Shown here: piece after piece, positions 5,778 to 43,867 of the stretch
Layout: each line of letters begins with the position of its first letter
Position numbering within the stretch: position 1 is the first letter of the stretch
From: Candidatus Moraniibacteriota bacterium
Lineage (GTDB): Bacteria; Patescibacteriota; Minisyncoccia; Moranbacterales; UBA1568
Assembly (NCBI GenBank): GCA_016699875.1
Contig: CP064989.1
Location: 456,788 to 520,787 of the forward strand
Direction: 5' to 3'
DNA length: 64,000 nt
The notes under the pieces: model-generated
The model's input: the letters and a program-made list of their open reading frames with translations, nothing else
Told to the model about the DNA's origin: nothing
Database searches by the model: none
Made by a program: the position numbers and the translations under genes

Positions 5778-8129
5778 TCAGTCCCGCTCCCCGCGAGCAA
5801 ACCAACGCGCAAGAACATATTGGAGAAGCGTATAGACGAATAATACCAAAGAAAACCTGACTGAGGCATCAGGAGAAATCGGCGGAATATCGATTTCAAA
5901 GAATCGCAAAACCAACGGGACATGAAGAGCTATCGGAAGCAATATCGCCTCGAAGAGCGCGAGCAGTACCAAATCTCTCATCTCCGAAGGCGCGAGCTTT
6001 CCCCGGAAAACCCTCGGGACAAAGAGGAAGAAAATAAATCCCAAAATAAGCGAAGCCAGAACGATGAGGAAATTCGACGGCGAATTTTTCAGCTGTTCGC
6101 CACTCAGAGCAAAGATAAATCCCAGAGCAACCGCCTGCAGCAATGACGACGAGACTACGAAAGGAAGTACTTTTCTCAAGAAATTTCCCGCATGCGCAGC
6201 AACTGCTTTCCCTGCCGGACGGATCGTCCAGTATGAGATAAGAATACTCGGGAAGCCGATAGTAAAATAATTGATAAGCGTCATATTGAGCGGCGTGAGC
6301 GGAAAGGCGTAGCCCAAAATACTGACCCACACGAAGAGAAAAAATCCCGTAAATGAAAAACTGAAAAAGATGCTTGCAAAAATCTCCGCGTTTTTGATAA
6401 TGCTGTCCGCCAATTCCACGCCGCCCGGAAGCGCCGTGAAACTATTGTTTGTCAACACAATCGAAGCAACCTGACGTGTCGCCGGAGCACCTTCAAACAT
6501 CGCGATACCGAGATCCGATTTCTTGAGCGCCAAAGCATCGTTCGCGCCGTCGCCCACCATCGCCGTAAATCCATCGTCTTTCAACGCTTCAACAATCCGC
6601 TCTTTCTGCTCGGGAAATATTCGCGCAAAAATAGTCGTATTCCGCACGCGATCTCCGAATTCTTCCTCTGTCCACTGATCGATATCCGCACCCGAGACCA
6701 CGCTGTCGGTTTCAAGAACACCTGCCGACCGAGCAATGGCCCGTACCGTCTCCGCATGATCGCCCGAGAGGATGCGAATACGCACTCCACGCTTCTGAAA
6801 GAACTCGATTGCTTCACGGATGCCCGGACGAAGCCGGCTCGAGAGAACGAAAACGCCGAGCAGAGAAAGTTTCGACTGCGCGATATCCTGAGGAATACCC
6901 ATACCATCCGAAAGGGCGATACAAAGAAGCCGATTCCCCTCACGAGCTTCCCGAGACAGGATGTCCTGCAGCCACGATTGTTCCGATGCGGCAATGAGCT
7001 GCGGGATCATTACTTCGGCAGCTCCCACCACGAGCACCATCGTATCTCCCGATACATCCCTAAATGACACTGCACCAAACCGACGCCACGAAGAGAAAGG
7101 CAGTCCATCAATTTTAACCCCCTTGAAAGAGTCATTGGTAAGAAGCTTCCGTACAGCAAGAGCGGTCTGAGATGTGTCATTTGTCCCATCAAGATATGCC
7201 GTCATGTATTCGAACGACTTCGCCTCCGGCGCACCGTCAACAGACAAAAACCGCTCCGCCGTGAGCCCGTTCTCACAAAGCGTTCCCGTCTTGTCCAGGC
7301 AGAGATTCTTGATACGCCCGAGTTTCTCCGTCGCATTCACTTCCTGCAGAAGCACGTGCCGGCGAAAAAGATGCGCCGCTCCATAAGCGAAGAGAAGCGT
7401 CATGCCGAATGCCAACCCCTGCGCCACGATCACGCTCGCGAGCGCGCCGACATGCTTCACGATATTCACATTCGACTCATGTGCCATGACACCGCGAAGA
7501 ACCGCAAAAGCAATGACAACGACCAGTACATACCCGGAATATCGGATCACCATATTGACCGACTTCTGTATCGGACTCTCGGCAACCGATGATCGCTGCA
7601 CTCCCTCCGTCATACGCGCAATGCGACTCTCGGCAAACACCGTCTCCGCCCGCATCAGACCGGCACCGGAGGTAATAATGCTTCCCGCAAGCACCCGCTC
7701 CCCCGCTCCGCGCGGCAACGATGTCGACTCGCCCGTAATAAGCCCCTCATTCAGCTCAAGTGATTCCGACGATACCAATACGCCGTCACACGGTATCTGA
7801 TCGCCCAAGCCGAGACGAAGCATATCTCCCTTCCGAACATCTTCCGTAAGAACGGATTCCTCGACACCGTCGCGAATACGATTCACATGCGGCGCCGTCA
7901 AAAGCTGGAGCTTTTCAAGCGCGCGCCACGCACGAATATCCTGTCCGAGACCAAGCAGCATATTGATCACGGTCACCAGCCCCAAGAACAATCCTGCCTG
8001 CCGATCACCAAATACAAAGAGAAGCGCCACGACTGTCAGGATAACGCCGTTTGTCAAAAGGAATACATTCCTCGATACGATATACCACAAATCCCGAATT
8101 TTTTTCACGCGCGGTGTCAGCATAAGCAC
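5778..8129 (-). CDS. P-type cation-transporting ATPase (P2-like; short N-terminus starting near TM1)
   Basis: Motifs ITGES (A-domain), CLDKTGTLCENG (DKTGT phosphorylation site), MVGDGANDALALKKSDLGIAM (hinge), multiple TM helices. 783 aa. Confidence 0.9.
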   Translation of the reverse strand: MLMLTPRVKKIRDLWYIVSRNVFLLTNGVILTVVALLFVFGDRQAGLFLGLVTVINMLLGLGQDIRAWRALEKLQLLTAPHVNRIRDGVEESVLTEDVRKGDMLRLGLGDQIPCDGVLVSSESLELNEGLITGESTSLPRGAGERVLAGSIITSGAGLMRAETVFAESRIARMTEGVQRSSVAESPIQKSVNMVIRYSGYVLVVVIAFAVLRGVMAHESNVNIVKHVGALASVIVAQGLAFGMTLLFAYGAAHLFRRHVLLQEVNATEKLGRIKNLCLDKTGTLCENGLTAERFLSVDGAPEAKSFEYMTAYLDGTNDTSQTALAVRKLLTNDSFKGVKIDGLPFSSWRRFGAVSFRDVSGDTMVLVVGAAEVMIPQLIAASEQSWLQDILSREAREGNRLLCIALSDGMGIPQDIAQSKLSLLGVFVLSSRLRPGIREAIEFFQKRGVRIRILSGDHAETVRAIARSAGVLETDSVVSGADIDQWTEEEFGDRVRNTTIFARIFPEQKERIVEALKDDGFTAMVGDGANDALALKKSDLGIAMFEGAPATRQVASIVLTNNSFTALPGGVELADSIIKNAEIFASIFFSFSFTGFFLFVWVSILGYAFPLTPLNMTLINYFTIGFPSILISYWTIRPAGKAVAAHAGNFLRKVLPFVVSSSLLQAVALGFIFALSGEQLKNSPSNFLIVLASLILGFIFFLFVPRVFRGKLAPSEMRDLVLLALFEAILLPIALHVPLVLRFFEIDIPPISPDASVRFSLVLFVYTLLQYVLARWFARGERD

Positions 8130-27914: not shown

Positions 27915-29036
27915 TCACTTCTCCCACGTGTATATAACATCACCGCCGACACCGCCCTTTGATTTTAGAGGCCCTTTCTTTTGCCCCTGAGTCAAGGTTC
28001 CTTGCAACTCGAGAGCGCCATTCTCTCCAACATCCTTTTTATAGAGAGGAATATCAACCGTATTGCCCACCGGTTCATCGATCACCCCTCCTGATGCCTC
28101 GAACGAACGGCGGGAAGATCCTCGCTTCTCCCCAAAGGTAATAGCAGCTTGAACAGCAGCGCCCTTCACAGCGTCAACAGCCAAATCAGCCATCGATCTC
28201 TGCTGATCCCGAAATCGTTCATCAACCGTAACCCCATAGAGCACTTCATCATGCTCTTCTTGCTGAGTCTTCTCTCTTTCCTTCGGGATTTTTGCACCAA
28301 CGAACTCTACATCCGAAGAAGTATTGATCTTTCCATCATCCGCGTTTTCTTTGTCGACAATACCGCCAGGACTCGAAGATTCATCCCCGTTTTCCGTCAG
28401 TTGTTCTTCTAACGCTGCCGTTTCTTCTTTTAATCTCTTTGTCAATTGTTCTGCCGAACTTCCCGAAGCATCAGCAACCTGAAGTCCAATTCGATTCGCA
28501 TCCTTCCTTATCCCAGGCGTCATCTTCCCTATTGCTTCCACCAAAACGGAATTGACAGGAACGCCTCCGGCAATCCTCTTCGTTGCTTTCTGTGCCACTC
28601 CTCCTGTATCCACCCCCATTTCAAGCGCCTTTACTGTCCCTGGCATTCCCACACCACCAGCAGCAAGAGCAACTCCCAAAATTTTCGCAACCATCTGCTT
28701 GTGATCCTCTTTAACACTGTCCATTGCCACAGAGATACCTCGGAGATTCCTCGATTCCCGCCTCAGCACTTCCTCTACAGCTTCGGGAGGGACGCCAATT
28801 CCTTGCGCTTTCTCCAAAAAATGAGATTCCAAACCATCCCCTTCTCCAGTAACCCGCGCAACATCCTCTTCAGATTCTTGCGCCGCACTACGAAGCTCCC
28901 GAATCCGCTCTGCCTCAGTTGACGCCCCTCCTTCAATTCCCTCCCTTTCAGTATCTTCAATGTGCCTCGACTCTACTTTTACTTCCCCCTCTTTTCCTCC
29001 AAGAAGACCTGCGCCGAAGGACTCTCGTTTACTCAT
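27915..29036 (-). CDS. Hypothetical acidic, low-complexity protein of unknown function
   Basis: ORF track. E/G/A-rich, no TM, no recognised motif. First gene (transcription order: last) of a tight 4-gene minus-strand cluster. Confidence 0.5.
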   Translation of the reverse strand: MSKRESFGAGLLGGKEGEVKVESRHIEDTEREGIEGGASTEAERIRELRSAAQESEEDVARVTGEGDGLESHFLEKAQGIGVPPEAVEEVLRRESRNLRGISVAMDSVKEDHKQMVAKILGVALAAGGVGMPGTVKALEMGVDTGGVAQKATKRIAGGVPVNSVLVEAIGKMTPGIRKDANRIGLQVADASGSSAEQLTKRLKEETAALEEQLTENGDESSSPGGIVDKENADDGKINTSSDVEFVGAKIPKEREKTQQEEHDEVLYGVTVDERFRDQQRSMADLAVDAVKGAAVQAAITFGEKRGSSRRSFEASGGVIDEPVGNTVDIPLYKKDVGENGALELQGTLTQGQKKGPLKSKGGVGGDVIYTWEK

Positions 29037-29045
29037 AGCGTTTTC

Positions 29046-29246
29046 TTATTTTTCAGTCTTTCCTCCTGCGATTTTCCTCTCAAGATCCCGTATCTTCGCC
29101 ACTTCAAGGTCATGAAAAAGACGGTCATAAACCACTCGTTTCTTTGCATTCAGCCGTTTAAGCTCTGCGATCGCGCATTCTGTAGCCTCCCGTATCGCAT
29201 GTAACGCTTCATCATGAGTCATACGCGAGTAATATTCATCGCACAT
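29046..29246 (-). CDS. Small helical hypothetical protein (66 aa)
   Basis: ORF track. 10-nt spacing to the downstream gene. Charged helical sequence. Confidence 0.35.
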   Translation of the reverse strand: MCDEYYSRMTHDEALHAIREATECAIAELKRLNAKKRVVYDRLFHDLEVAKIRDLERKIAGGKTEK

Positions 29247-29357
29247 AGAATTTCCTCGCCGGAGTCTCCGAGGGGACTCTGACAGAGGAAAATGCTCGTC
29301 TCCAGTTCAGCAGAAACAACCGAAGGGTCGCGTTTTGCTTTTATTTTGTTTTTCAGC

Positions 29358-29801
29358 TTATTGAACAGGTGTTGGCTGAATTTCTTCAGCTGGCGTGTTA
29401 TGAACGTATTTTTTGCTGAATAGGTAGAAAGCAATAACGATGCCAACAAATAGAATAAAATCTACAGCCATTTCCAATGAAATACCTTTATCCATTTTAT
29501 TGATCCTGAAAAGCCCACCCAAAACAGCCGCGTAAATAGTGGCTAATTTTATAACCTTGTTACTGTCGTTTACAATGTAAGTTTTTGCAAGATATTTTGC
29601 AGAATATCTAACGCCGAGCCAGATACCAAGAAACCAGAGCGCAGAATTCGCGATAACTACCAATAGAGCATCGTCTTTTCCAATAAGCAAAAACGTTGGG
29701 ATGCCGAGAACAAGTGCTACCAAGAATGGCATAGCTAAACCCGACGTCAAATAATGGGTTGCTGCAATGTTCCAATTTGCAGACTGCTTTTTCTCTTTCA
29801 T
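29358..29801 (-). CDS. Hypothetical 4-TM membrane protein (AT-rich gene)
   Basis: ORF track. Four hydrophobic helices. Local GC visibly lower than the window average. Confidence 0.5.
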   Translation of the reverse strand: MKEKKQSANWNIAATHYLTSGLAMPFLVALVLGIPTFLLIGKDDALLVVIANSALWFLGIWLGVRYSAKYLAKTYIVNDSNKVIKLATIYAAVLGGLFRINKMDKGISLEMAVDFILFVGIVIAFYLFSKKYVHNTPAEEIQPTPVQ

Positions 29802-29826
29802 TTGGTTTATGATTATTTATCCTAGA

Positions 29827-30903
29827 TCACGCTGACTGATACTTTTTAGTCTTTTGCAATAGGAAATCTCTCAAAATTTCAGCATTTTCTTTTTTGAGCC
29901 CCGTAACTGTTATAGAGCCATCACCCGTACTCTCAGCGGCTGTTTCCATAGTAACCTCATAAAGCCCTAAAAATCTTTCCACTATTGATTGTGAGATGTC
30001 TATGTTTTGAACTCTATTAAAGTAAACGTGGGTAGTTCTGGCTGATAGAACTTTTTCTGTTATTATGCCTCCTTGGCTATCAAATTTGAAATAGTAGTTC
30101 TTATACCAAATCAATTCCATAACATAGCTAACAATAAGCGTTAGGATAGGAATTACAACAATTCCATATCCAAATACCGAAAGCGGAAGTTTGAGAGCAT
30201 CACTCACAGCGTTTCCAATATAACCAAGTCCGATTATAAGAACTACTGAGTAAAAAATTGTTCTTACAACAACATCAGCAAAAATGATCTTCTTTTCAAT
30301 TGGCATATTCTCTCGCGTGAGCACTCTTTGATCATTTTCATTTATCGTTGCACCTTCCACTTCTTTTTCTACTGCAATGCTTGTTGTTTGAGGATTTTGG
30401 TAGCCTTTGTTTTGAACTCTTTCATTCAAAAATTTCACCAATTTATCAGCATTTTCTTTTTCCAACCCATCCACGTGTGAATAAAAATCAGAGCTTTCAC
30501 CAGCAGTTTCATAGTGCACATCGTAAAGACCGAAAACTCTATCAAGAAAATCTTGATCAACAAAGATATTTTGGATTTTACCATATCTTACATGTCCAGT
30601 AGCATTTGAAATAACACCTTTCTTGATCTCAGCCCCGTCCATTTCAAAATTGTAGTAGTAATACTTGTAGTATAAATACTGCCAACCGAGTGCAATGAGC
30701 AAGATAATAAGGGATGGAACAAAAAGAACCAAAAAAGCAATCAGAGCAGCTTTGTTTCCAATATGAAAATCTAAACTACTCCCCATAAAGGAAACTATCG
30801 GGAATAAAACCAAAAGCAAGATCATTGGCAATATTCCAACTGAATTTATTGTCTTTTTGATTATCTTCTTTTTGCTCAGGGGAAGATTTTGAGAGTTATA
30901 CAT
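29827..30903 (-). CDS. Membrane protein with two tandem bacterial PH (bPH_2/YdbT-like) repeats (AT-rich gene)
   Basis: Two repeats of TM-hairpin plus ...GxVxYxxIQNI.V.Q.FLDR.FGLYDV..ETAGES... (VRYGKIQNIFVDQDFLDRVFGLYDVHYETAGES and VYFNRVQNIDISQSIVERFLGLYEVTMETAAES). Start refined to 30903. Confidence 0.6.
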   Translation of the reverse strand: MYNSQNLPLSKKKIIKKTINSVGILPMILLLVLFPIVSFMGSSLDFHIGNKAALIAFLVLFVPSLIILLIALGWQYLYYKYYYYNFEMDGAEIKKGVISNATGHVRYGKIQNIFVDQDFLDRVFGLYDVHYETAGESSDFYSHVDGLEKENADKLVKFLNERVQNKGYQNPQTTSIAVEKEVEGATINENDQRVLTRENMPIEKKIIFADVVVRTIFYSVVLIIGLGYIGNAVSDALKLPLSVFGYGIVVIPILTLIVSYVMELIWYKNYYFKFDSQGGIITEKVLSARTTHVYFNRVQNIDISQSIVERFLGLYEVTMETAAESTGDGSITVTGLKKENAEILRDFLLQKTKKYQSA

Positions 30904-31072
30904 ATATGTATTATACCAACTGATTCCTTCGGAGAAGGAAAAATTATGGCAAAGAAAAGGAAGGGAAGGGAAGGGACCAGTTCCCAATAAAAATAGATAA
31001 TTTTTTAAAATGCCTCTTCATAAGTCTCCTTAAGGGGTAAGTTACCCTCCCTCACCAGAGTCTCCGAAGAAT

Positions 31073-31603: not shown

Positions 31604-31629
31604 GTTTTCATTGTATCACAAACTTTTGA

Positions 31630-31700
31630 GCGAGTGACGGGAATCGGACCCGTGCCCCAACCTTGGGAAGGTTATGTACTGCCACTATACTACACTCGCA
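31630..31700 (-). tRNA. tRNA-Gly (anticodon CCC), no encoded CCA
   Basis: Hand-folded cloverleaf: acceptor GCGAGUG/CACUCGC, D-stem GUAU/GUAC, anticodon stem UAACC/GGUUG with loop UUCCCAA, T-arm ACGGG-UCCGAUU-CCCGU, discriminator U. 71 nt. Confidence 0.85.
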
Positions 31701-38462: not shown

Positions 38463-38642
38463 ATGGATGAAGAGATGAAGGAAGGTACGGAGGAATCCGC
38501 TTGCAACCATGAAGGCGGTTGCAACTGCGAAACACCCTCGACGTCCCAGAGCGGAGAGAGAGAAGAAATCGCACTCGCATTTCTTCTTGCCCTCATGCCA
38601 CTGGTTGTTCTCACCTTCTTCGGACAAGTCGGCCTCATATAA
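38463..38642 (+). CDS. sORF (59 aa): acidic Cys-motif N-terminus (CNHEGGCNC) plus C-terminal TM helix. Below the ORF-track size cutoff.
   Basis: ATG at 38463 with AAGG 7-8 nt upstream. MDEEMKEGTEESACNHEGGCNCETPSTSQSGEREEIALAFLLALMPLVVLTFFGQVGLI. Followed by a clean terminator at 38682..38707. Confidence 0.35.
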   Translation: MDEEMKEGTEESACNHEGGCNCETPSTSQSGEREEIALAFLLALMPLVVLTFFGQVGLI

Positions 38643-38707: not shown

Positions 38708-38825
38708 TTGAGACAATACATATCTCTTGGAATGCGTGCTAGACTATTTGGTAAGAAAAAGGCCTCACTCGTTTTATTGCAAGCAAGGCACATTTTTGAG
38801 ACAAACCTCAAGTAAGATGAGGTCA

Positions 38826-39404
38826 TTACCAGTGATATTGGATTGCTATTGCAGAATTGATTTCGCCACCATCGGAAAATGTCATACCCTGTATCGAGAT
38901 ATTCTCGCTAAGCGCATACTCAGCTCGAACGCCCGTGCCAAGAAACGCTTGATTAATCAACCCGAAATTCCATTCGGAATTGATGGCGTACGTCATCACT
39001 ACCTTGTGCCAACTATTGCCGGATTGCCCGACTTCGAAAATACCAAGAGCAAAAAACTTCTCTTTACTCAAAGCAACGTAACCAGCACGACGCAATGTCC
39101 ACGTATCTCCTGACCCAGGAACATGTTCAACGCCAGCAGCAATACCAAACTCAAAGGCGTTTACCCGAAAATGAGGTCCGGCATATATCTGCGCGTAACC
39201 ACCCTCAACCGCCTGTCCGAAAACATAATACCCGACAGCGCTATTCGATTGGCTCCATCCGGATACACCTCCCATAACCGATCTCGAGTAAACCCCTTTA
39301 GGATCCCGAGCTACGTCGAGCTCAAACCAACCTCCAGCAACGCACACCAATGGCAATAGCCACGAGGAAATTAGCGCAACCACCACGACAGTCTTTCGCT
39401 TCAT
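38826..39404 (-). CDS. Secreted beta-rich protein, possible small beta-barrel (signal peptide; alternating amphipathic strands; C-terminal ...IQYHW)
   Basis: Signal peptide MKRKTVVVVALISSWLLPLVCVAG, alternating hydrophobic patterns, aromatic C-terminus. Confidence 0.5.
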   Translation of the reverse strand: MKRKTVVVVALISSWLLPLVCVAGGWFELDVARDPKGVYSRSVMGGVSGWSQSNSAVGYYVFGQAVEGGYAQIYAGPHFRVNAFEFGIAAGVEHVPGSGDTWTLRRAGYVALSKEKFFALGIFEVGQSGNSWHKVVMTYAINSEWNFGLINQAFLGTGVRAEYALSENISIQGMTFSDGGEINSAIAIQYHW

Positions 39405-40129
39405 GAAATCCTACCTCCCGAGAAAATAATCAATGAAGTACCGTCAAACTCAGAGGGACATTGCCAACAAAGATTTCCAAGACCAGCGGATTGTGCAATC
39501 CTTTCCAAAGTTTCTTTCCGCCAATAATAGTTCTGGAAACTACATATCTCCCCACCATCCACCCCATAGAGCGTGGTATGAATTCTCGATCCATCAACCA
39601 TCGCACAATCAATCCACGTTGATACTGCCTGAACCTCCGGAATTGGATGCCCCGGATGAATCAGAACAGCCACAAACTGGACCGTATTCTCCAACTTTCC
39701 AACAGACACATTTAGCAGACTCTGGACATTCTGAAAAAACGTTCGAAGCTGATCTTCACTACTAGCGCATTGAATCACATTATATGCGGTCACAAAGCGA
39801 AAAATTCCGCGACACCATTGTTCAGGGATCTTCTCGAAAATATCCTGCTGAACGAAAGATAGGCCAGGAATCCTTCTCTCAACCCCAATACGAAGCATCT
39901 CTGCACTACCATCAAACCCAACAACAAGATTCACCTTTCCAGTATCAATCAACTCCTTACCAAAACGACCAGAACCACATCCAAAGTCAGCAACAACCGC
40001 AGAACAATCCGATAGAGAAGGGCTTCCCCCAACCATGCGCCCAACAACAGCGTACATCTTATTCCAGAGAGGCTGATCCTCCCTCTTCGGAGAAGAGAAC
40101 TGCTCTGCAATAACATCATACTCACCCAT
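39401..40129 (-). CDS. Class I SAM-dependent methyltransferase
   Basis: Motif I VADFGCGSGRFG. Acidic motif II region VGFDGS. ATGA overlap with the downstream gene. Confidence 0.8.
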   Translation of the reverse strand: MGEYDVIAEQFSSPKREDQPLWNKMYAVVGRMVGGSPSLSDCSAVVADFGCGSGRFGKELIDTGKVNLVVGFDGSAEMLRIGVERRIPGLSFVQQDIFEKIPEQWCRGIFRFVTAYNVIQCASSEDQLRTFFQNVQSLLNVSVGKLENTVQFVAVLIHPGHPIPEVQAVSTWIDCAMVDGSRIHTTLYGVDGGEICSFQNYYWRKETLERIAQSAGLGNLCWQCPSEFDGTSLIIFSGGRIS

Positions 40130-40235
40130 TTGTCTATATCCTCCTAAACATTTCGAGGTAAAGTCCGCTCTTGAGAGCTCTCAATACAATCACTGCAATT
40201 CTCAATCCATTGTTAATGAACATCCTCATTAAACA

Positions 40236-40285
40236 AGCTATACACAGTGAATCACAGAACTTGAGGCAAGTCAATACGCAGCTAA
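40236..40285. repeat. Direct repeat A (~45 bp, ~85% identical to 42046..42095), contains imperfect palindrome CAGTGAATCACAG
   Basis: Direct sequence comparison: atacacagtgaatcacagaacttgaggcaagtcaatacgcagcta versus atacgcagtgaatcacagaacttgaaacaaatcaatatgcactag. Confidence 0.7.
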
Positions 40286-40291
40286 GTACAT

Positions 40292-40789
40292 TCAATCTTC
40301 AAGTGCAACACCTGTTAATTCATAAAATACCTCATAAGGAGTCTTCCAGCCAAGGCGTTTTCTCGGTCTTGAATTGAGGAGATGCTCAACCCTTCGTATC
40401 TCCTCATCGGAGACGATACGAAAGTCCGTTTTCTTCGGGAAGAATCGTCGAATAAGTCCGTTGAGGTTTTCGTTCGATCCCCGTTCCCAGGAATGGTAGG
40501 CGTGAGCGAAGAAACAACGGATGTCGAGTTCCTTTTCAAGTTCCTCGTATCCGAGATTCTCGCTTCCACGATCACGAGTGAGGGTTTTTCGTACGTGTTT
40601 TGGCAGTATGCCGAGTCGTTTCCGAGTTATCCGATTCGCTTCTTTCATAGTCCGACTCTTCGTTCTCTCAATGAGTACTACTCCGGAAACCCGTTCGTTC
40701 GTAGTTCGAAGGCGGACAGGGTTCGTCGGGGAGGAAACAATGGAATCATCTTCCCAGTGACCAATCTCTTTCCGTGCTTCAACGGTCAT
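40292..40789 (-). pseudogene. IS30-family transposase remnant (C-terminal DDE catalytic half only)
   Basis: GHWEDDSIV (HWEGD-like), DRGSEN, HAYHSWERGSNENLNGLIRRFFPKKTDF (IS30 C-terminal signature). Only ~165 aa, N-terminal HTH half missing. Followed by an AT-rich junk region at 40800..40960. Confidence 0.7.
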
Positions 40790-41003
40790 CGGTCTGGATT
40801 CTATGGATGGAAGCGGGCCTAGATGTAAAATATGAAAAGCATTTTATTGTATTGCATACAGCAGTTCAAAATGAAATTTTGAACATATGTAAAAAGAGAA
40901 AGGAGCTATCCACGATGTGTTGTGAATAGCCCCGATTTTTCGATCCGCTGTCGGCGGAATTCAAGGGATCAAAATCCCCAAGAATTCAAGATTTCGGGGT
41001 CGA

Positions 41004-41897
41004 CTACTGCACAAGGAAGCCAGACACCGAACCGAAGCCACGGCAAGGAAAAACAACGGCATTTGCATCAAACCTAACCTCACCACCGTCAAAGTCGAGA
41101 CAGGGACACCCGGGAAAGTCACCATTAGCATTTGGAGAGAACTCGTCACCGGAGCAGTTCATATTCAGTTCTGCCCAGCGAGCAAGCCGTTCGGGATGAG
41201 TCAGAACAATGGAACAGACCGCGAGACTTCCGAGATCAAACTCGTTGGCTGCGAAGACCTTGCGAGCCCGACGAACGGACTTGCCGCGATGGCGCATGCC
41301 GAGCTGGGCGGCGACGATCAGGATGTCGCCCTTCTGCGTTTCGGTGAGAGACGCCAGCGCGTGCGCCGTGCGAGCATGAACCCGAAACTGCGCCGGCGTG
41401 ATCTGTCCATCGCGGTAGTTGTAGAACGGCCGGGAGGCCGCGATCTTGGCATGGACGAGCTGGACCGCCTGGCAGCACATCTCCGCCGGATCGGTCACTT
41501 TAGGGAAATGCTTCTTGGCCAGCGCTTCAACGGACGGGATGGCAAACCATCCTTCGGCACTGTCAGGGAGTGCAGGTAAGTTATTGGCGAACTCGAGAGC
41601 GCTCGCCGGATCGAGATCGAAGATCTTGGCGATTACATTAATCTGATCCGCGATCAGCTCGGGTCCTTTGTATGCCTCCGGGTACGTGTAGCTGGAATAA
41701 AGTTCCTCGTCGGCGTACTGGTTGGACATGGTCAGCTCAGTGATGAGCTTCGCGATCCCGTCCTGCAGTTCGCCACCGCGCTCGTTAAGCCGCTGTGCGC
41801 GCACATCGTCGAGCTCGGACTTGTCGTAGGCGGCCTTGAAGAGACCGACTGCGTGGAGACCTTTCGAGTCTCGGCTGGTGATCAATGTCTGTGACAT
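41004..41897 (-). CDS. Hypothetical protein, compositionally foreign (GC clearly higher than surroundings); Cys-rich C-terminus (CSGDEF...GCPCLDFDGGE...FPCRGFG)
   Basis: ORF track frame. Start refined to MSQTLITS with AAGGAGG RBS. Local GC ~60% against a ~50% background. Confidence 0.5.
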   Translation of the reverse strand: MSQTLITSRDSKGLHAVGLFKAAYDKSELDDVRAQRLNERGGELQDGIAKLITELTMSNQYADEELYSSYTYPEAYKGPELIADQINVIAKIFDLDPASALEFANNLPALPDSAEGWFAIPSVEALAKKHFPKVTDPAEMCCQAVQLVHAKIAASRPFYNYRDGQITPAQFRVHARTAHALASLTETQKGDILIVAAQLGMRHRGKSVRRARKVFAANEFDLGSLAVCSIVLTHPERLARWAELNMNCSGDEFSPNANGDFPGCPCLDFDGGEVRFDANAVVFPCRGFGSVSGFLVQ

Positions 41898-41957
41898 CGT
41901 CATCCTCCTTCTTTCTTTAAGTTTGCCGGGGTCGTTCCGGCTAACGACTTCCTCTGC

Positions 41958-42011
41958 ATGAGGTAGCGCGCTAGGCATAAAAACTGTCTTACGCCCAATG
42001 CGCTACCTCAT
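41958..42011. promoter_or_regulatory. 12-bp perfect inverted repeat (ATGAGGTAGCGC ... GCGCTACCTCAT, 30-nt spacer) upstream of the GC-rich gene
   Basis: Read directly. Located 60-110 nt upstream of start 41897 on the minus strand. Confidence 0.4.
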
Positions 42012-42045
42012 AGATAAATCGTTTCAAAGAACTCGCTTCAAAAGA

Positions 42046-42095
42046 GCACCATACGCAGTGAATCACAGAACTTGAAACAAATCAATATGCACTAG
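42046..42095. repeat. Direct repeat B (partner of 40236..40285)
   Basis: See repeat A. Confidence 0.7.
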
Positions 42096-42160
42096 CAGCA
42101 CTCACAAACATAAAGAGGGACGAATGTCCCTCTGAAAATCCAAAATATTTTGGAACAAGA

Positions 42161-43867
42161 TTACTGCCCCGATTCTCCATTTGTTTCACTGACTGGCAAT
42201 TCATTTGACGACGCTACTACCCGCACCTCAATGTTCTTCGACTCCTCACCAAACCATTCCTGCCCTTCACGAAGCATGCGCCACTGAAAATCATAGGTGC
42301 CGGGTTTTTCCGGTGCAGTCACCGTGAATCCAAATTCAACCTTCTTCCCCGGTTCGATAGTCTTCCCCGAAAAGAGGAAGACCCGCCCGCCCCACATCGC
42401 ATTGTCCTGTGGATTTTGCGAACCAAGCCGATAACCAAGATCGTCTGACCATGTGGTTGTACCCGTATTTTTCATAGTTACTGACACGGAATATTTCTGC
42501 CCAGCAATCATCGTATCAGGCACATCTTGATCATCAAACTTGGCGTCATCTTCCTCCTCTTTCTTGCCATTTTCCGAAATGGAAATACCTTTCATTTGTA
42601 CCGAGTCTTGAATTGATACAGCATTCTTCATATCAATACCCTCGAAAGGAACCGCCCGCAGAAGCGTATTCATAACATCCTCATCTTTGCACGAATATCG
42701 ATTGTCCGGAGAATAAAAACTTTTCTTGGCACCATAACAACCGCCGTTCTTGTCATACAGCGTCGCAAGAAATGGGAAAAGGAATCCTGTCTTCTTCGTA
42801 GCATCGTTGAACTTCTCAGCAAGCTTCTCGAGAGTCTTGGCTCGATCATCTCGACTCATAGCGGCAAACACACTCATATCATCTCCGGCAATACCACTCC
42901 AGTCGAGGTGGAGAAGCACCATATTTGCATGGGGAAGGTACCGATTATTCCAGAGAAGCGCCCAGCACCATCCCTGCGATTCGTATCGGGAAGCGCACGG
43001 CTTTTCTTCAACATCGCCATCTTTGGTGACGCCGACTCCGCCCTCGATATAATCGAAGAGGTCGAGATACGAAGCGCTGGTGATGGTATTCGTCTGAGCA
43101 CCAATGGCAATCTTCATGCGCTTCGATCGAGCATAGCGATGCATCTCTTCAAGAATACCGGAAGCATTGCTTCGATCAACATCCTGGAAAGCTATCTGTC
43201 CGAAGAGAAAACTTCGGATTCCCATATCCATCGCCTTCTGCGTAATATCACGCACATAGGCGCGGTATTCTTTGCTCGCAAAAGAGGCTTTGCACGTATT
43301 ATTTCCCCAAAATCCCTCGCTCTTCGGCTGACACATATCTGAAAAATTGAGCACGCGATTCTCAAGAGAAGAGTAGTATTCCGCCTCCGTATTGAGTGCT
43401 TCGGATATGAACATGCCATACACCATATCTGGTTTGGTGATGAGCTGTTTTGTCCGACGAGCAAGCTCGAAATCGGGAGGATTGAGCCACGATTCAAGTG
43501 CGCGATGAAGGTAGAGGCACTCGGAGCGATTGATCAGATCGACAGATGCTCGAGTATCACCGCCATATCCGGAAAGAAGCCCATCGGCTACGCAGCCGCG
43601 GCGCTTCATAATCTCAAGCAAATCGGCAGGGCGATTCACGCTCGCACTCGATTCCGTTTCGATATCAAGAGAGACAATCCAAATCAGACTCACTACGGTA
43701 CCCGCGATAAACGCCAAGAGAAGAGCTCCTTTCCACGTCTTCACGCGAGTTCTCTTCATAGAAACATACGTTCGTCCCCACCAACTGTGGATTTCCCGAA
43801 CGACCGTATCGATTTCACGAATTTTCGGCTTCCGATTCTCTTCGGAAAAACGAGGTATTTGATCCAT
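42161..43867 (-). CDS. Membrane-anchored extracytoplasmic protein with glycoside-hydrolase-like TIM-barrel-type central region and C-terminal NBR1-like Ig domain
   Basis: N-terminal TM (ALLLAFIAGTVVSLIWIV). C-terminal KYSVSVTMKNTGTTTW...GKKVEFGFTVTAPEKPGTYDFQWRM matches the NBR1-like/CARDB-like fold pattern. Start refined to MDQIPRF with GGAGG RBS. A terminator hairpin AGAGGGAC-gaat-GTCCCTCT sits 3' of the stop. Confidence 0.5.
   Translation of the reverse strand: MDQIPRFSEENRKPKIREIDTVVREIHSWWGRTYVSMKRTRVKTWKGALLLAFIAGTVVSLIWIVSLDIETESSASVNRPADLLEIMKRRGCVADGLLSGYGGDTRASVDLINRSECLYLHRALESWLNPPDFELARRTKQLITKPDMVYGMFISEALNTEAEYYSSLENRVLNFSDMCQPKSEGFWGNNTCKASFASKEYRAYVRDITQKAMDMGIRSFLFGQIAFQDVDRSNASGILEEMHRYARSKRMKIAIGAQTNTITSASYLDLFDYIEGGVGVTKDGDVEEKPCASRYESQGWCWALLWNNRYLPHANMVLLHLDWSGIAGDDMSVFAAMSRDDRAKTLEKLAEKFNDATKKTGFLFPFLATLYDKNGGCYGAKKSFYSPDNRYSCKDEDVMNTLLRAVPFEGIDMKNAVSIQDSVQMKGISISENGKKEEEDDAKFDDQDVPDTMIAGQKYSVSVTMKNTGTTTWSDDLGYRLGSQNPQDNAMWGGRVFLFSGKTIEPGKKVEFGFTVTAPEKPGTYDFQWRMLREGQEWFGEESKNIEVRVVASSNELPVSETNGESGQ

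Follow-up and report, generated by a model that had tools for sequence, protein, structure and literature searches.

The region described here belongs to a stretch of 64 kb (hereafter the window, whose numbering is used throughout) out of a 1.09-Mb Candidatus Moraniibacteriota genome. On the minus strand of this window, two direct repeats enclose a GC-rich gene, identified below by homology as a target gene of diversity-generating retroelements (DGRs), and a 5'-truncated insertion sequence (IS) of the IS30 family, the whole being inserted in front of an operon that starts with a methyltransferase gene. An earlier note, made from the letters alone, had offered two readings of this segment: a decayed mobile insertion with the repeats as its att-like ends, or an operator shared by two genes. 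Homologs of the GC-rich gene were compared in L001-L003, L015-17, L026 and L027 (the last two being IMG/VR viral contigs), and full-length relatives of the IS30 element in L011-L014. The surroundings were compared in five related Moraniibacteriota loci (L004-L008) and in a syntenic relative that carries the methyltransferase (L018). Coordinates of the features are collected in Table 1.

A repeat search of the window returned a pair of direct repeats at 40240-40280 and 42051-42091 (41 nt, 88% identical), which a gapped local alignment lengthened to 45 nt (about 87% identical, with one gap of 1 nt). The alignment score was 58, against 18.2 +/- 2.4 (maximum 34) in 300 shuffles, and the direct repeats of about 45 bp and about 85% identity that had been described beforehand are therefore real. 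Similarity past the 45 nt, into the 17-nt junction, was not significant. The identical core of the repeats is 20 nt long (CAGTGAATCACAGAACTTGA) and has 2 copies in 64 kb when 3 mismatches are allowed, for an expected number of 0. Exact-match scans of this 20-mer gave 0 matches in species-representative genome contigs, 0 in viral contigs, and 1 in metagenome contigs, a chance 21-mer within a coding region. The search for further copies, proposed by the earlier note as a check of its operator reading, thus yielded none beyond the two in 64 kb and this single chance match in public collections. A dispersed element was rejected as the nature of the repeat on the basis of these scans. The repeat was also rejected as a terminal inverted repeat of IS30: four relatives place the end of the IS at ...TTGAATGTAC (40286), and copy 1, which begins at 40284, 1 nt outside this right end, was considered as DNA flanking the IS rather than as a part of it.

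The operon in front of which the segment lies consists of a class I SAM methyltransferase gene (39401-40129) and a gene encoding a 192-aa signal-peptide protein (38826-39404), followed by a terminator at 38762-38789. The methyltransferase has one homolog in the protein database, on L018, where the gene order is 192b - 569 aa - methyltransferase - 192a - small gene - PBP; the gene ahead of the methyltransferase is a homolog of the 597-aa gene upstream of the insert in the window. The orthologs in L018 are 65% (methyltransferase) and 82% (192-aa protein) identical to those of the window, and the locus contains neither IS30 nor DGR gene. Its spacer of 244 nt between the 569-aa gene and the methyltransferase gene holds a terminator, then a homolog of the repeat (ATTGACTAGATTCATATTGCATGATACACATTGTAATG) about 110 nt before the ATG; this is the single copy of repeat-homologous sequence there, at a position equivalent to that in the window. 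Because L018 has one copy at this place and no insert, the repeats are duplicated resident sequence around an insert spanning 40285-42050. The comparison of related genomes, which had been suggested as a check, thus documents in L018 an empty site with one repeat copy, lacking both the IS30 and the GC-rich gene.

In L004-L008, the order is 597-aa gene, bidirectional terminator, small convergent gene and PBP gene, with nothing equivalent to window 38712-42160. As the methyltransferase/192-aa module is also absent there, the region that varies with respect to these closest relatives is larger and nested (38712-42160).

Table 1. Features of the inserted segment and of its surroundings (window positions; UTR, untranslated region; VR, variable repeat; TR, template repeat; RT, reverse transcriptase; MFE, minimum free energy)
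Feature	Position	Strand	Basis
Intrinsic terminator of the upstream 597-aa gene (stop at 42161)	42114..42133	-	Terminator scan: 8-bp stem, then T-run
Direct repeat copy 2, before the foreign gene	42051..42094	-	Homologous to the single-copy sequence of L018
17-nt junction from repeat copy 2 to the conserved cassette	42034..42050	-	Cassette homology (L002/L003/L015) starts at 42033
Conserved structured 5' UTR of the cassette	41898..42033	-	Homology to L002/L003/L015; MFE -65.1 kcal/mol, z -6.6
Putative DGR variable-protein (target) gene, 297 aa, orphan copy	41004..41897	-	Homologs adjoin RT + bAvd + TR in L002, L003, L026, L027
Region matching the 131-nt VR, last ~43 codons	41006..41136	-	TR/VR pairs of L002/L003
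Conserved 3' UTR of the cassette: hairpin just past the VR, and intrinsic terminator 40902-40933	40868..41003	-	87% identical to L003/L015-17
AT-rich filler; putative deletion or fusion joint from the cassette to the IS30 interior	40821..40867	-	No homology to either
5'-truncated IS30-family element	40286..40820	-	Catalytic half of the transposase and intact right terminal inverted repeat (40286-40312)
Direct repeat copy 1, before the methyltransferase operon	40240..40284	-	Begins 1 nt outside the IS30 end
Resident operon hit by the insertion	38826..40129	-	Orthologs at the same place in L018
Bidirectional terminator, left edge of the region absent from L004-L008	38676..38707	.	Comparison with L004-L008

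The GC-rich gene has a GC content of 0.58 and a GC content at third codon positions (GC3) of 0.68, compared with a GC3 of 0.40-0.50 in the neighbouring host genes. Its 1-kb bin has the highest GC of the window and is the sole bin with a positive GC skew, and its ATG at 41897 is preceded by the ribosome-binding site (RBS) AAGGAGG. Its description as a compositionally foreign gene with its own RBS was therefore confirmed. A total of 901 homologs of the protein were found; identity is 66-79% for the 120 best in the list, those with a name coming from several Patescibacteria lineages. The wider protein family comprises 1523 clusters at 50% identity. The protein gave no sequence match in Pfam, PHROGs, PADLOC, PDB or the GenBank phage collection, and one insignificant match in NCBIfam (E 0.16).

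In L002 and L003, the homolog adjoins genes encoding an RVT_1 reverse transcriptase (RT) and bAvd, and the last 131 nt of the gene recur just past bAvd as an inverted copy (84-85%). Over the aligned stretch, 27-32 of the 45-51 mismatches between this template repeat (TR) and the variable repeat (VR) of the gene fall at TR adenines (L001-L003); in the core, adenines only are affected. Such a TR/VR pair with adenine mismatches is the signature of a DGR, and the pairing holds for the homologs in L002, L003, L015-17, L026 and L027. An alignment of 25 homologs shows about 250 highly conserved residues followed by about 40 hypervariable ones on a fixed scaffold. By homology, the GC-rich gene is thus assigned as a DGR target (variable-protein) gene. 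The label of Cys-rich gene given to it beforehand corresponds to cysteines that sit mostly in the DGR variable region; its identity as a DGR target, which emerged from the homology search, had not been recognised.

The two viral contigs carry a complete DGR, with an RT 97.7% and a TR 98.5% identical to those of L003, and a phage capsid gene lies near the DGR in L003; the source of the GC-rich gene is therefore phage-borne. Its foreign origin is likewise argued for by a GC3 above that of the host and by the high DNA identity of the cassette across differing Patescibacteria lineages (84-95%, with dS of 0.16-0.40). The GC3 of the homologs in L001-L003 is 0.81, versus 0.68 in the window copy, for a host GC of 0.41-0.49. 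An AlphaFold model based on an alignment of 66 diverse representatives reached a pLDDT of 97 and a pTM of 0.90. Foldseek searches with this AF2 model returned no match at E<=0.001; the weak matches were mainly to proteins of C-type-lectin fold, including formylglycine-generating enzymes (FGE), PvdO and the Treponema denticola DGR target TvpA (2y3c). That no recognisable domain is present in the GC-rich protein fits what Roux et al. 2021 (PMC8144416) reported on DGR targets in the Patescibacteria clade. As side observations on this family, JGI records P0004, P0029 and P0030 label homologs as "ribosomal protein S16", a name for which there is no sequence support and which is likely an annotation error. 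A complete DGR (RT, bAvd, TR and target, L002 2885-6258) is located between rpsJ and rplC, in the ribosomal protein cluster of a Pacebacteria metagenome-assembled genome.

Homology of the window copy to L002/L003/L015-17 runs from 42033, in the 5' untranslated region (UTR), to 40868, 35 nt beyond the terminator, and this conserved unit is referred to as the cassette. The 5' leader (window 41898-42050, minus strand) has counterparts at L002 4862-5010, L003 4858-5004 and L015 3938-4085. It contains a hairpin at 41958-42011 with a stem of 23-27 bp, of which a perfect inverted repeat of 12 bp had been reported; the inverted repeat is present, and its actual extent is that of the longer hairpin. 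A second hairpin shows compensatory GC/AU changes, and a pyrimidine tract of the leader, AGUUCUUU, is predicted to pair with the RBS. The leader had no Rfam match, and an Rfam scan of 38.2-42.3 kb detected no known RNA family. On the other side of the gene, an AT-rich scar had been proposed at 40800..40960. Part of it corresponds to the filler, 47 AT-rich nucleotides (40821-40867) without homology to the cassette relatives or to the IS30 relatives, whereas the sequence from 40868 to 41003, which accounts for most of it, is not a scar: it is the conserved 3' UTR with its terminator. Downstream of the cassette, L003 (6034-6180) and L015 (5114-5260) have in common a non-coding stretch with a strong hairpin (ATCCATCCAAGG...CCTTGGATGGT), which is absent from the window.

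The window copy of the target gene stands alone. RT and Avd were searched for with tblastn (L003 queries) and none was found in the 64-kb window; a blastn search with the TR of L003 aligned only the gene's own last 32 nt, which are invariant. The promoter TTGACA-17-TATACT that precedes the 5' UTR in L002/L003 is missing from the window copy. At the DNA level this copy is 84-88% identical to the other copies, which are 91-95% identical among themselves, and its dN/dS is 0.30-0.43, versus 0.16-0.19 among the others; it is partly ameliorated and under relaxed constraint. Besides adenines, C and G positions differ between its VR and the known TRs, which suggests that this VR is no longer rewritten by that DGR. 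A partial decay is found in L015-17 (e.g. L015 2488-4975), where the target gene and a TR 97.7% identical to that of L003 are retained, Avd is reduced to its C-terminal 42 residues, and a radical-SAM gene occupies the position of the RT; L001 retains the target gene alone. No repeats flanking the cassette were found in L001, L002 and L015, and the duplication is therefore not a general property of the cassette.

The second component of the insert is an ORF (open reading frame) of 165 aa at 40292-40789 (minus strand), which matches positions 126-267 of the 267 of NCBIfam NF033563 transpos_IS30 (E 1.5e-46), in agreement with the C-terminal-only IS30 transposase fragment previously described. DNA homology to the full-length relatives spans 40820 to 40286, right terminal inverted repeat included, and the transposases of these relatives (L011-L014) are 71-80% identical. 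The IS30 element had 1423 homologs in all. The right end ...GGTGTTGCACTTnnnGATTGAATGTAC is common to the window and the relatives, and the latter also have a matching left inverted repeat. The window element has lost its left inverted repeat as well as the N-terminal, DNA-binding part of the transposase (about 110 codons), and is a remnant rather than a complete element. A search for a left inverted repeat inward from 42050, the opposite end of the insert, gave only AGTTC in common, a motif also present in IS30-free cassettes. No long duplication between left and right flanks was detected in three full-length relatives (L011, L013 and L014), and the IS30 right-end pattern had no match in viral contigs.

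The start codons of the methyltransferase gene and of the GC-rich gene are 110 and 153 nt away from the repeat that precedes them, close to the distances of about 115-150 nt indicated beforehand, and each copy follows a terminator, in the case of copy 2 that of the upstream gene (42114-42133). Both copies contain elements that resemble a promoter: TTGACT (40274-40269), a 17-nt spacer ending with TGA, and TTCACT (40251-40246) in copy 1; TTGATT (42085-42080), a 17-nt spacer ending with TGA, and TTCACT (42062-42057) in copy 2. The -35 hexamer of the repeat is kept in the L018 ortholog, and the palindrome GTGAaTCAC is not. The repeat therefore most likely holds the promoter of the methyltransferase operon, with a -35 hexamer TTGAC/TT, a 17-nt spacer ending with TGn and a weak -10 hexamer. 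The surroundings of the IS30 right end were examined at six independent sites (L011, L013, L014, L019-22, L023-24 and window 40269-40286). A -35-like hexamer is located 11-12 nt downstream of this end at five of them (TTGACA three times, TTGACT and TAGACT), and in four IS30 relatives the hexamer is followed by 17 nt and an extended -10 element TGnTAnnnT. This pattern suggests that the IS30 clade inserts, or is retained, at the upstream edge of promoters.

We consider it likely that a composite insertion, by now decayed, makes up the segment 40285-42050 in the promoter region of the methyltransferase operon, with long target duplication as the preferred mechanism. The comparisons show the insertion itself, its empty site, what each part is and that resident sequence was duplicated; the role of the repeat as a promoter and the way in which the duplication came about are inferred. 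In the order of the minus strand, the insert consists of a DGR target cassette, the filler, and the 3' half of an IS30 with an intact right end. The cassette comprises a structured 5' UTR, an RBS, the 297-aa gene, the post-VR hairpin and a terminator, to the exclusion of promoter, TR, Avd and RT. The repeats are two copies of the resident sequence located between the terminator of the upstream gene and the 5' UTR of the methyltransferase. Homology on the IS30/methyltransferase side may have anchored the incoming DNA, with an illegitimate junction formed just downstream of the promoter; another possibility is the filling-in of staggered breaks separated by 45 nt. The IS30 would have landed at the usual spot of its clade, 11 nt ahead of the -35 hexamer, and would later have lost its 5' half through one deletion or more. 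As a result, the promoter-less foreign gene now stands behind one copy of a promoter-like sequence, the methyltransferase keeping the other. The 13% divergence between the repeats is compatible with copies that were identical at insertion, which is possible because the window-specific synonymous branch of the gene is similar in size, or with a donor and a recipient that had already diverged.

The methyltransferase/192a module of L018 is itself flanked by direct repeats of about 47 nt (5780-5826 and 7403-7449) made of the bidirectional terminator, which align with a score of 31, versus 16.4 +/- 2.5 (maximum 24) for shuffled sequences. This terminator is single-copy in L004-L008, the genomes without the module. 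The terminator repeats of L018 are a further case of long target duplication, nested within this locus.

Several points weigh against the insertion with long target duplication as formulated above. A simple promoter scan called neither copy of the repeat, and the best -10 candidate, TTCACT, has no A at position 2. The insert carries an IS30 remnant, and the class of long target duplications is defined for inserts without other mobile elements. The edge of the repeat coincides exactly with the end of the IS30, which points to an involvement of this element that the preferred mechanism explains only indirectly. L018 is a distant relative (65-82% protein identity), and its repeat ortholog is only about 65-70% identical, so that the parental copy is not distinguishable; moreover, a precise excision through recombination between the repeats would mimic an empty site. 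Finally, the searches for repeat copies and for an RT or TR acting in trans covered 64 kb of the 1.09 Mb.

Among the alternatives, an integrase-bearing element (for instance a DGR phage) could have inserted at an attB site, the repeats being attL and attR, followed by deletions and by an IS30 insertion at the edge of attR. The direct repeats have a single counterpart, to which both align, at the empty site of L018, a trait common to non-integrase mechanisms. Like att sites, they have an identical core (20 nt) between partly similar arms; the complete DGR with this gene is phage-borne, and if an IS30 had landed 11 nt ahead of the -35 hexamer, this would account for the similarity ending at the IS end. 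However, no integrase gene or fragment was detected between the repeats or across 38.7-42.2 kb (ORFs, Pfam and NCBIfam), no tRNA target is involved, and no repeat-like attP was found in the phage DNA of L003 and L025-L027 (stretches of at most 13 kb per phage, those of L026 and L027 included). This scenario also requires two deletions, each stopping exactly where the variable-protein transcription unit begins or ends, one of them reaching precisely attL, and we regard it as unlikely. Of the decayed mobile insertion bounded by repeats that the earlier note had in mind, the insertion is retained on the evidence of the L018 empty site; the att-like ends are not, the repeats being duplicated host sequence with no integrase in between.

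An IS30-type transposase may also have moved the whole 1.8-kb unit and duplicated a long inverted-repeat target, in the manner of IS1630, an IS30-type element of Mycoplasma fermentans that generates duplications of 16-26 bp of inverted-repeat targets (PMC3317919, PMC2853133). Besides this precedent, the right end of the insert is a genuine IS30 end abutting a repeat, and the repeat contains an imperfect palindrome, CTGTGAtTCACTG. This possibility is nevertheless judged quite improbable: there is no left inverted repeat at 42050 inward, only the right end abuts a repeat, and the full-length relatives L011, L013 and L014 have no long duplication across their flanks. In addition, the longest duplication made by IS1630 is only about half of the 45 nt seen here, and the remnant lacks the N-terminal DNA-binding region, so that a transposase would be needed in trans.

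That the two 45-mers are independent sites for one regulator, alike by selection rather than by duplication, is very hard to credit: each copy does have a minus-strand gene start 110-153 nt downstream of it and an imperfect palindrome within it, but there are only two in 64 kb with 3 mismatches allowed and none in public collections apart from the chance 21-mer in a coding region, their 87% identity over 45 nt is far beyond operator needs, the palindrome is lost in the L018 ortholog where the -35-like hexamer is kept, and one copy precedes a gene foreign to the locus. The shared operator proposed beforehand survives insofar as both genes lie behind copies of the same promoter-like sequence; it does not as a regulon, since the palindrome GTGAaTCAC is not kept in L018 and only two copies exist in 64 kb, and the similarity of the repeats is explained by duplication.

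Two further observations were made in the window. A conserved small gene (38463-38642, plus strand) encodes 59 aa with a HEGGCNCE motif followed by a hydrophobic tail; it converges on the bidirectional terminator (Table 1), and both are kept in 6/6 related loci. Another stretch, from 29000 to 31000, has a GC of 0.35-0.41, versus a window mean of 0.49, and contains the genes of two membrane proteins of the multi-pass type, 147 and 386 aa long; it lies just downstream of a tRNA-Gly(ccc) gene (31628-31699) and may be another acquired segment.

The locus provides, with an empty site, a documented case of a phage-derived hypervariable-protein gene turned into a stand-alone chromosomal gene in a lineage of reduced-genome symbionts, and a probable case of gene capture behind a copy of resident promoter-like sequence. 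It also contributes a case from Patescibacteria, together with a second, nested one, to the class of long target duplications, which is poorly understood. Three leads follow from it: the placement of the IS30 clade upstream of promoters, the recurrent duplication, at this locus, of regulatory stretches about 45 nt long, and a conserved leader predicted to mask the RBS of a widespread DGR target family, whose protein has a confident predicted fold and no significant structural neighbour. A broader conjecture, to which we give little credence at this stage, is that promoter-region duplication is a recurrent, possibly IS30-assisted way for Patescibacteria to domesticate promoter-less cargo such as phage DGR targets. 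If true, the upstream edge of sigma-70-type promoters, at 11-12 nt from the -35 hexamer, would be the target of the IS30 clade; each insertion there would duplicate about 45 nt of regulatory DNA, with the cargo gaining a promoter and the resident operon retaining its own; and the nested terminator duplication around the methyltransferase module of L018 would be another product of the same mechanism.

Insertion with long target duplication was described with repeats of more than 30 bp, 45-49 bp long in several cases, and a single copy of the repeat in the empty-site genome (Nobusato et al. 2000; Furuta et al. 2010, PMC2853133). In the published cases, the inserts are restriction-modification systems and contain no other mobile element (PMC2853133). 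Similarly, the 45-nt repeats of the window enclose a gene block and are represented by a single copy in L018; the repeat is unique and not dispersed, and no integrase is present. The window differs in its cargo (a DGR target gene and an IS30 remnant), in the promoter-like nature of the duplicated sequence, in its empty-site genome, which is a distant relative and not a conspecific strain, and in the identity of its repeats, 87% versus 95-100% in the published cases.

The DGR variable (target) proteins of Patescibacteria were reportedly treated by Paul et al. in 2017. The relatives of the window gene resemble the Patescibacteria DGR clade 2 by a C-terminal VR templated by an adenine-mismatched TR, together with RT and bAvd, and by a target without recognisable conserved domain, as in targets of the Candidate Phyla Radiation (PMC8144416). 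The window copy differs from them by the absence of RT, Avd and TR within 64 kb and of a promoter of its own. With the IS30 family, the window shares a DDE transposase homolog with the NF033563-type catalytic half and a terminal inverted repeat as in the full-length relatives; it differs in that only the 3' half is kept and that the 45-nt repeat lies outside the element, the relatives having no long duplications. TnGBS/ISLre2-type DDE elements insert 15-17 bp upstream of the -35 boxes of sigma-A promoters. The right end of the IS30 clade, located 11-12 nt upstream of a -35-like hexamer at 5/6 sites, recalls this preference, although it belongs to another transposase family and its six sites may reflect either targeting or selective retention. 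The feature as a whole belongs to known kinds and does not overturn current understanding: it is a fairly ordinary, well-documented insertion.

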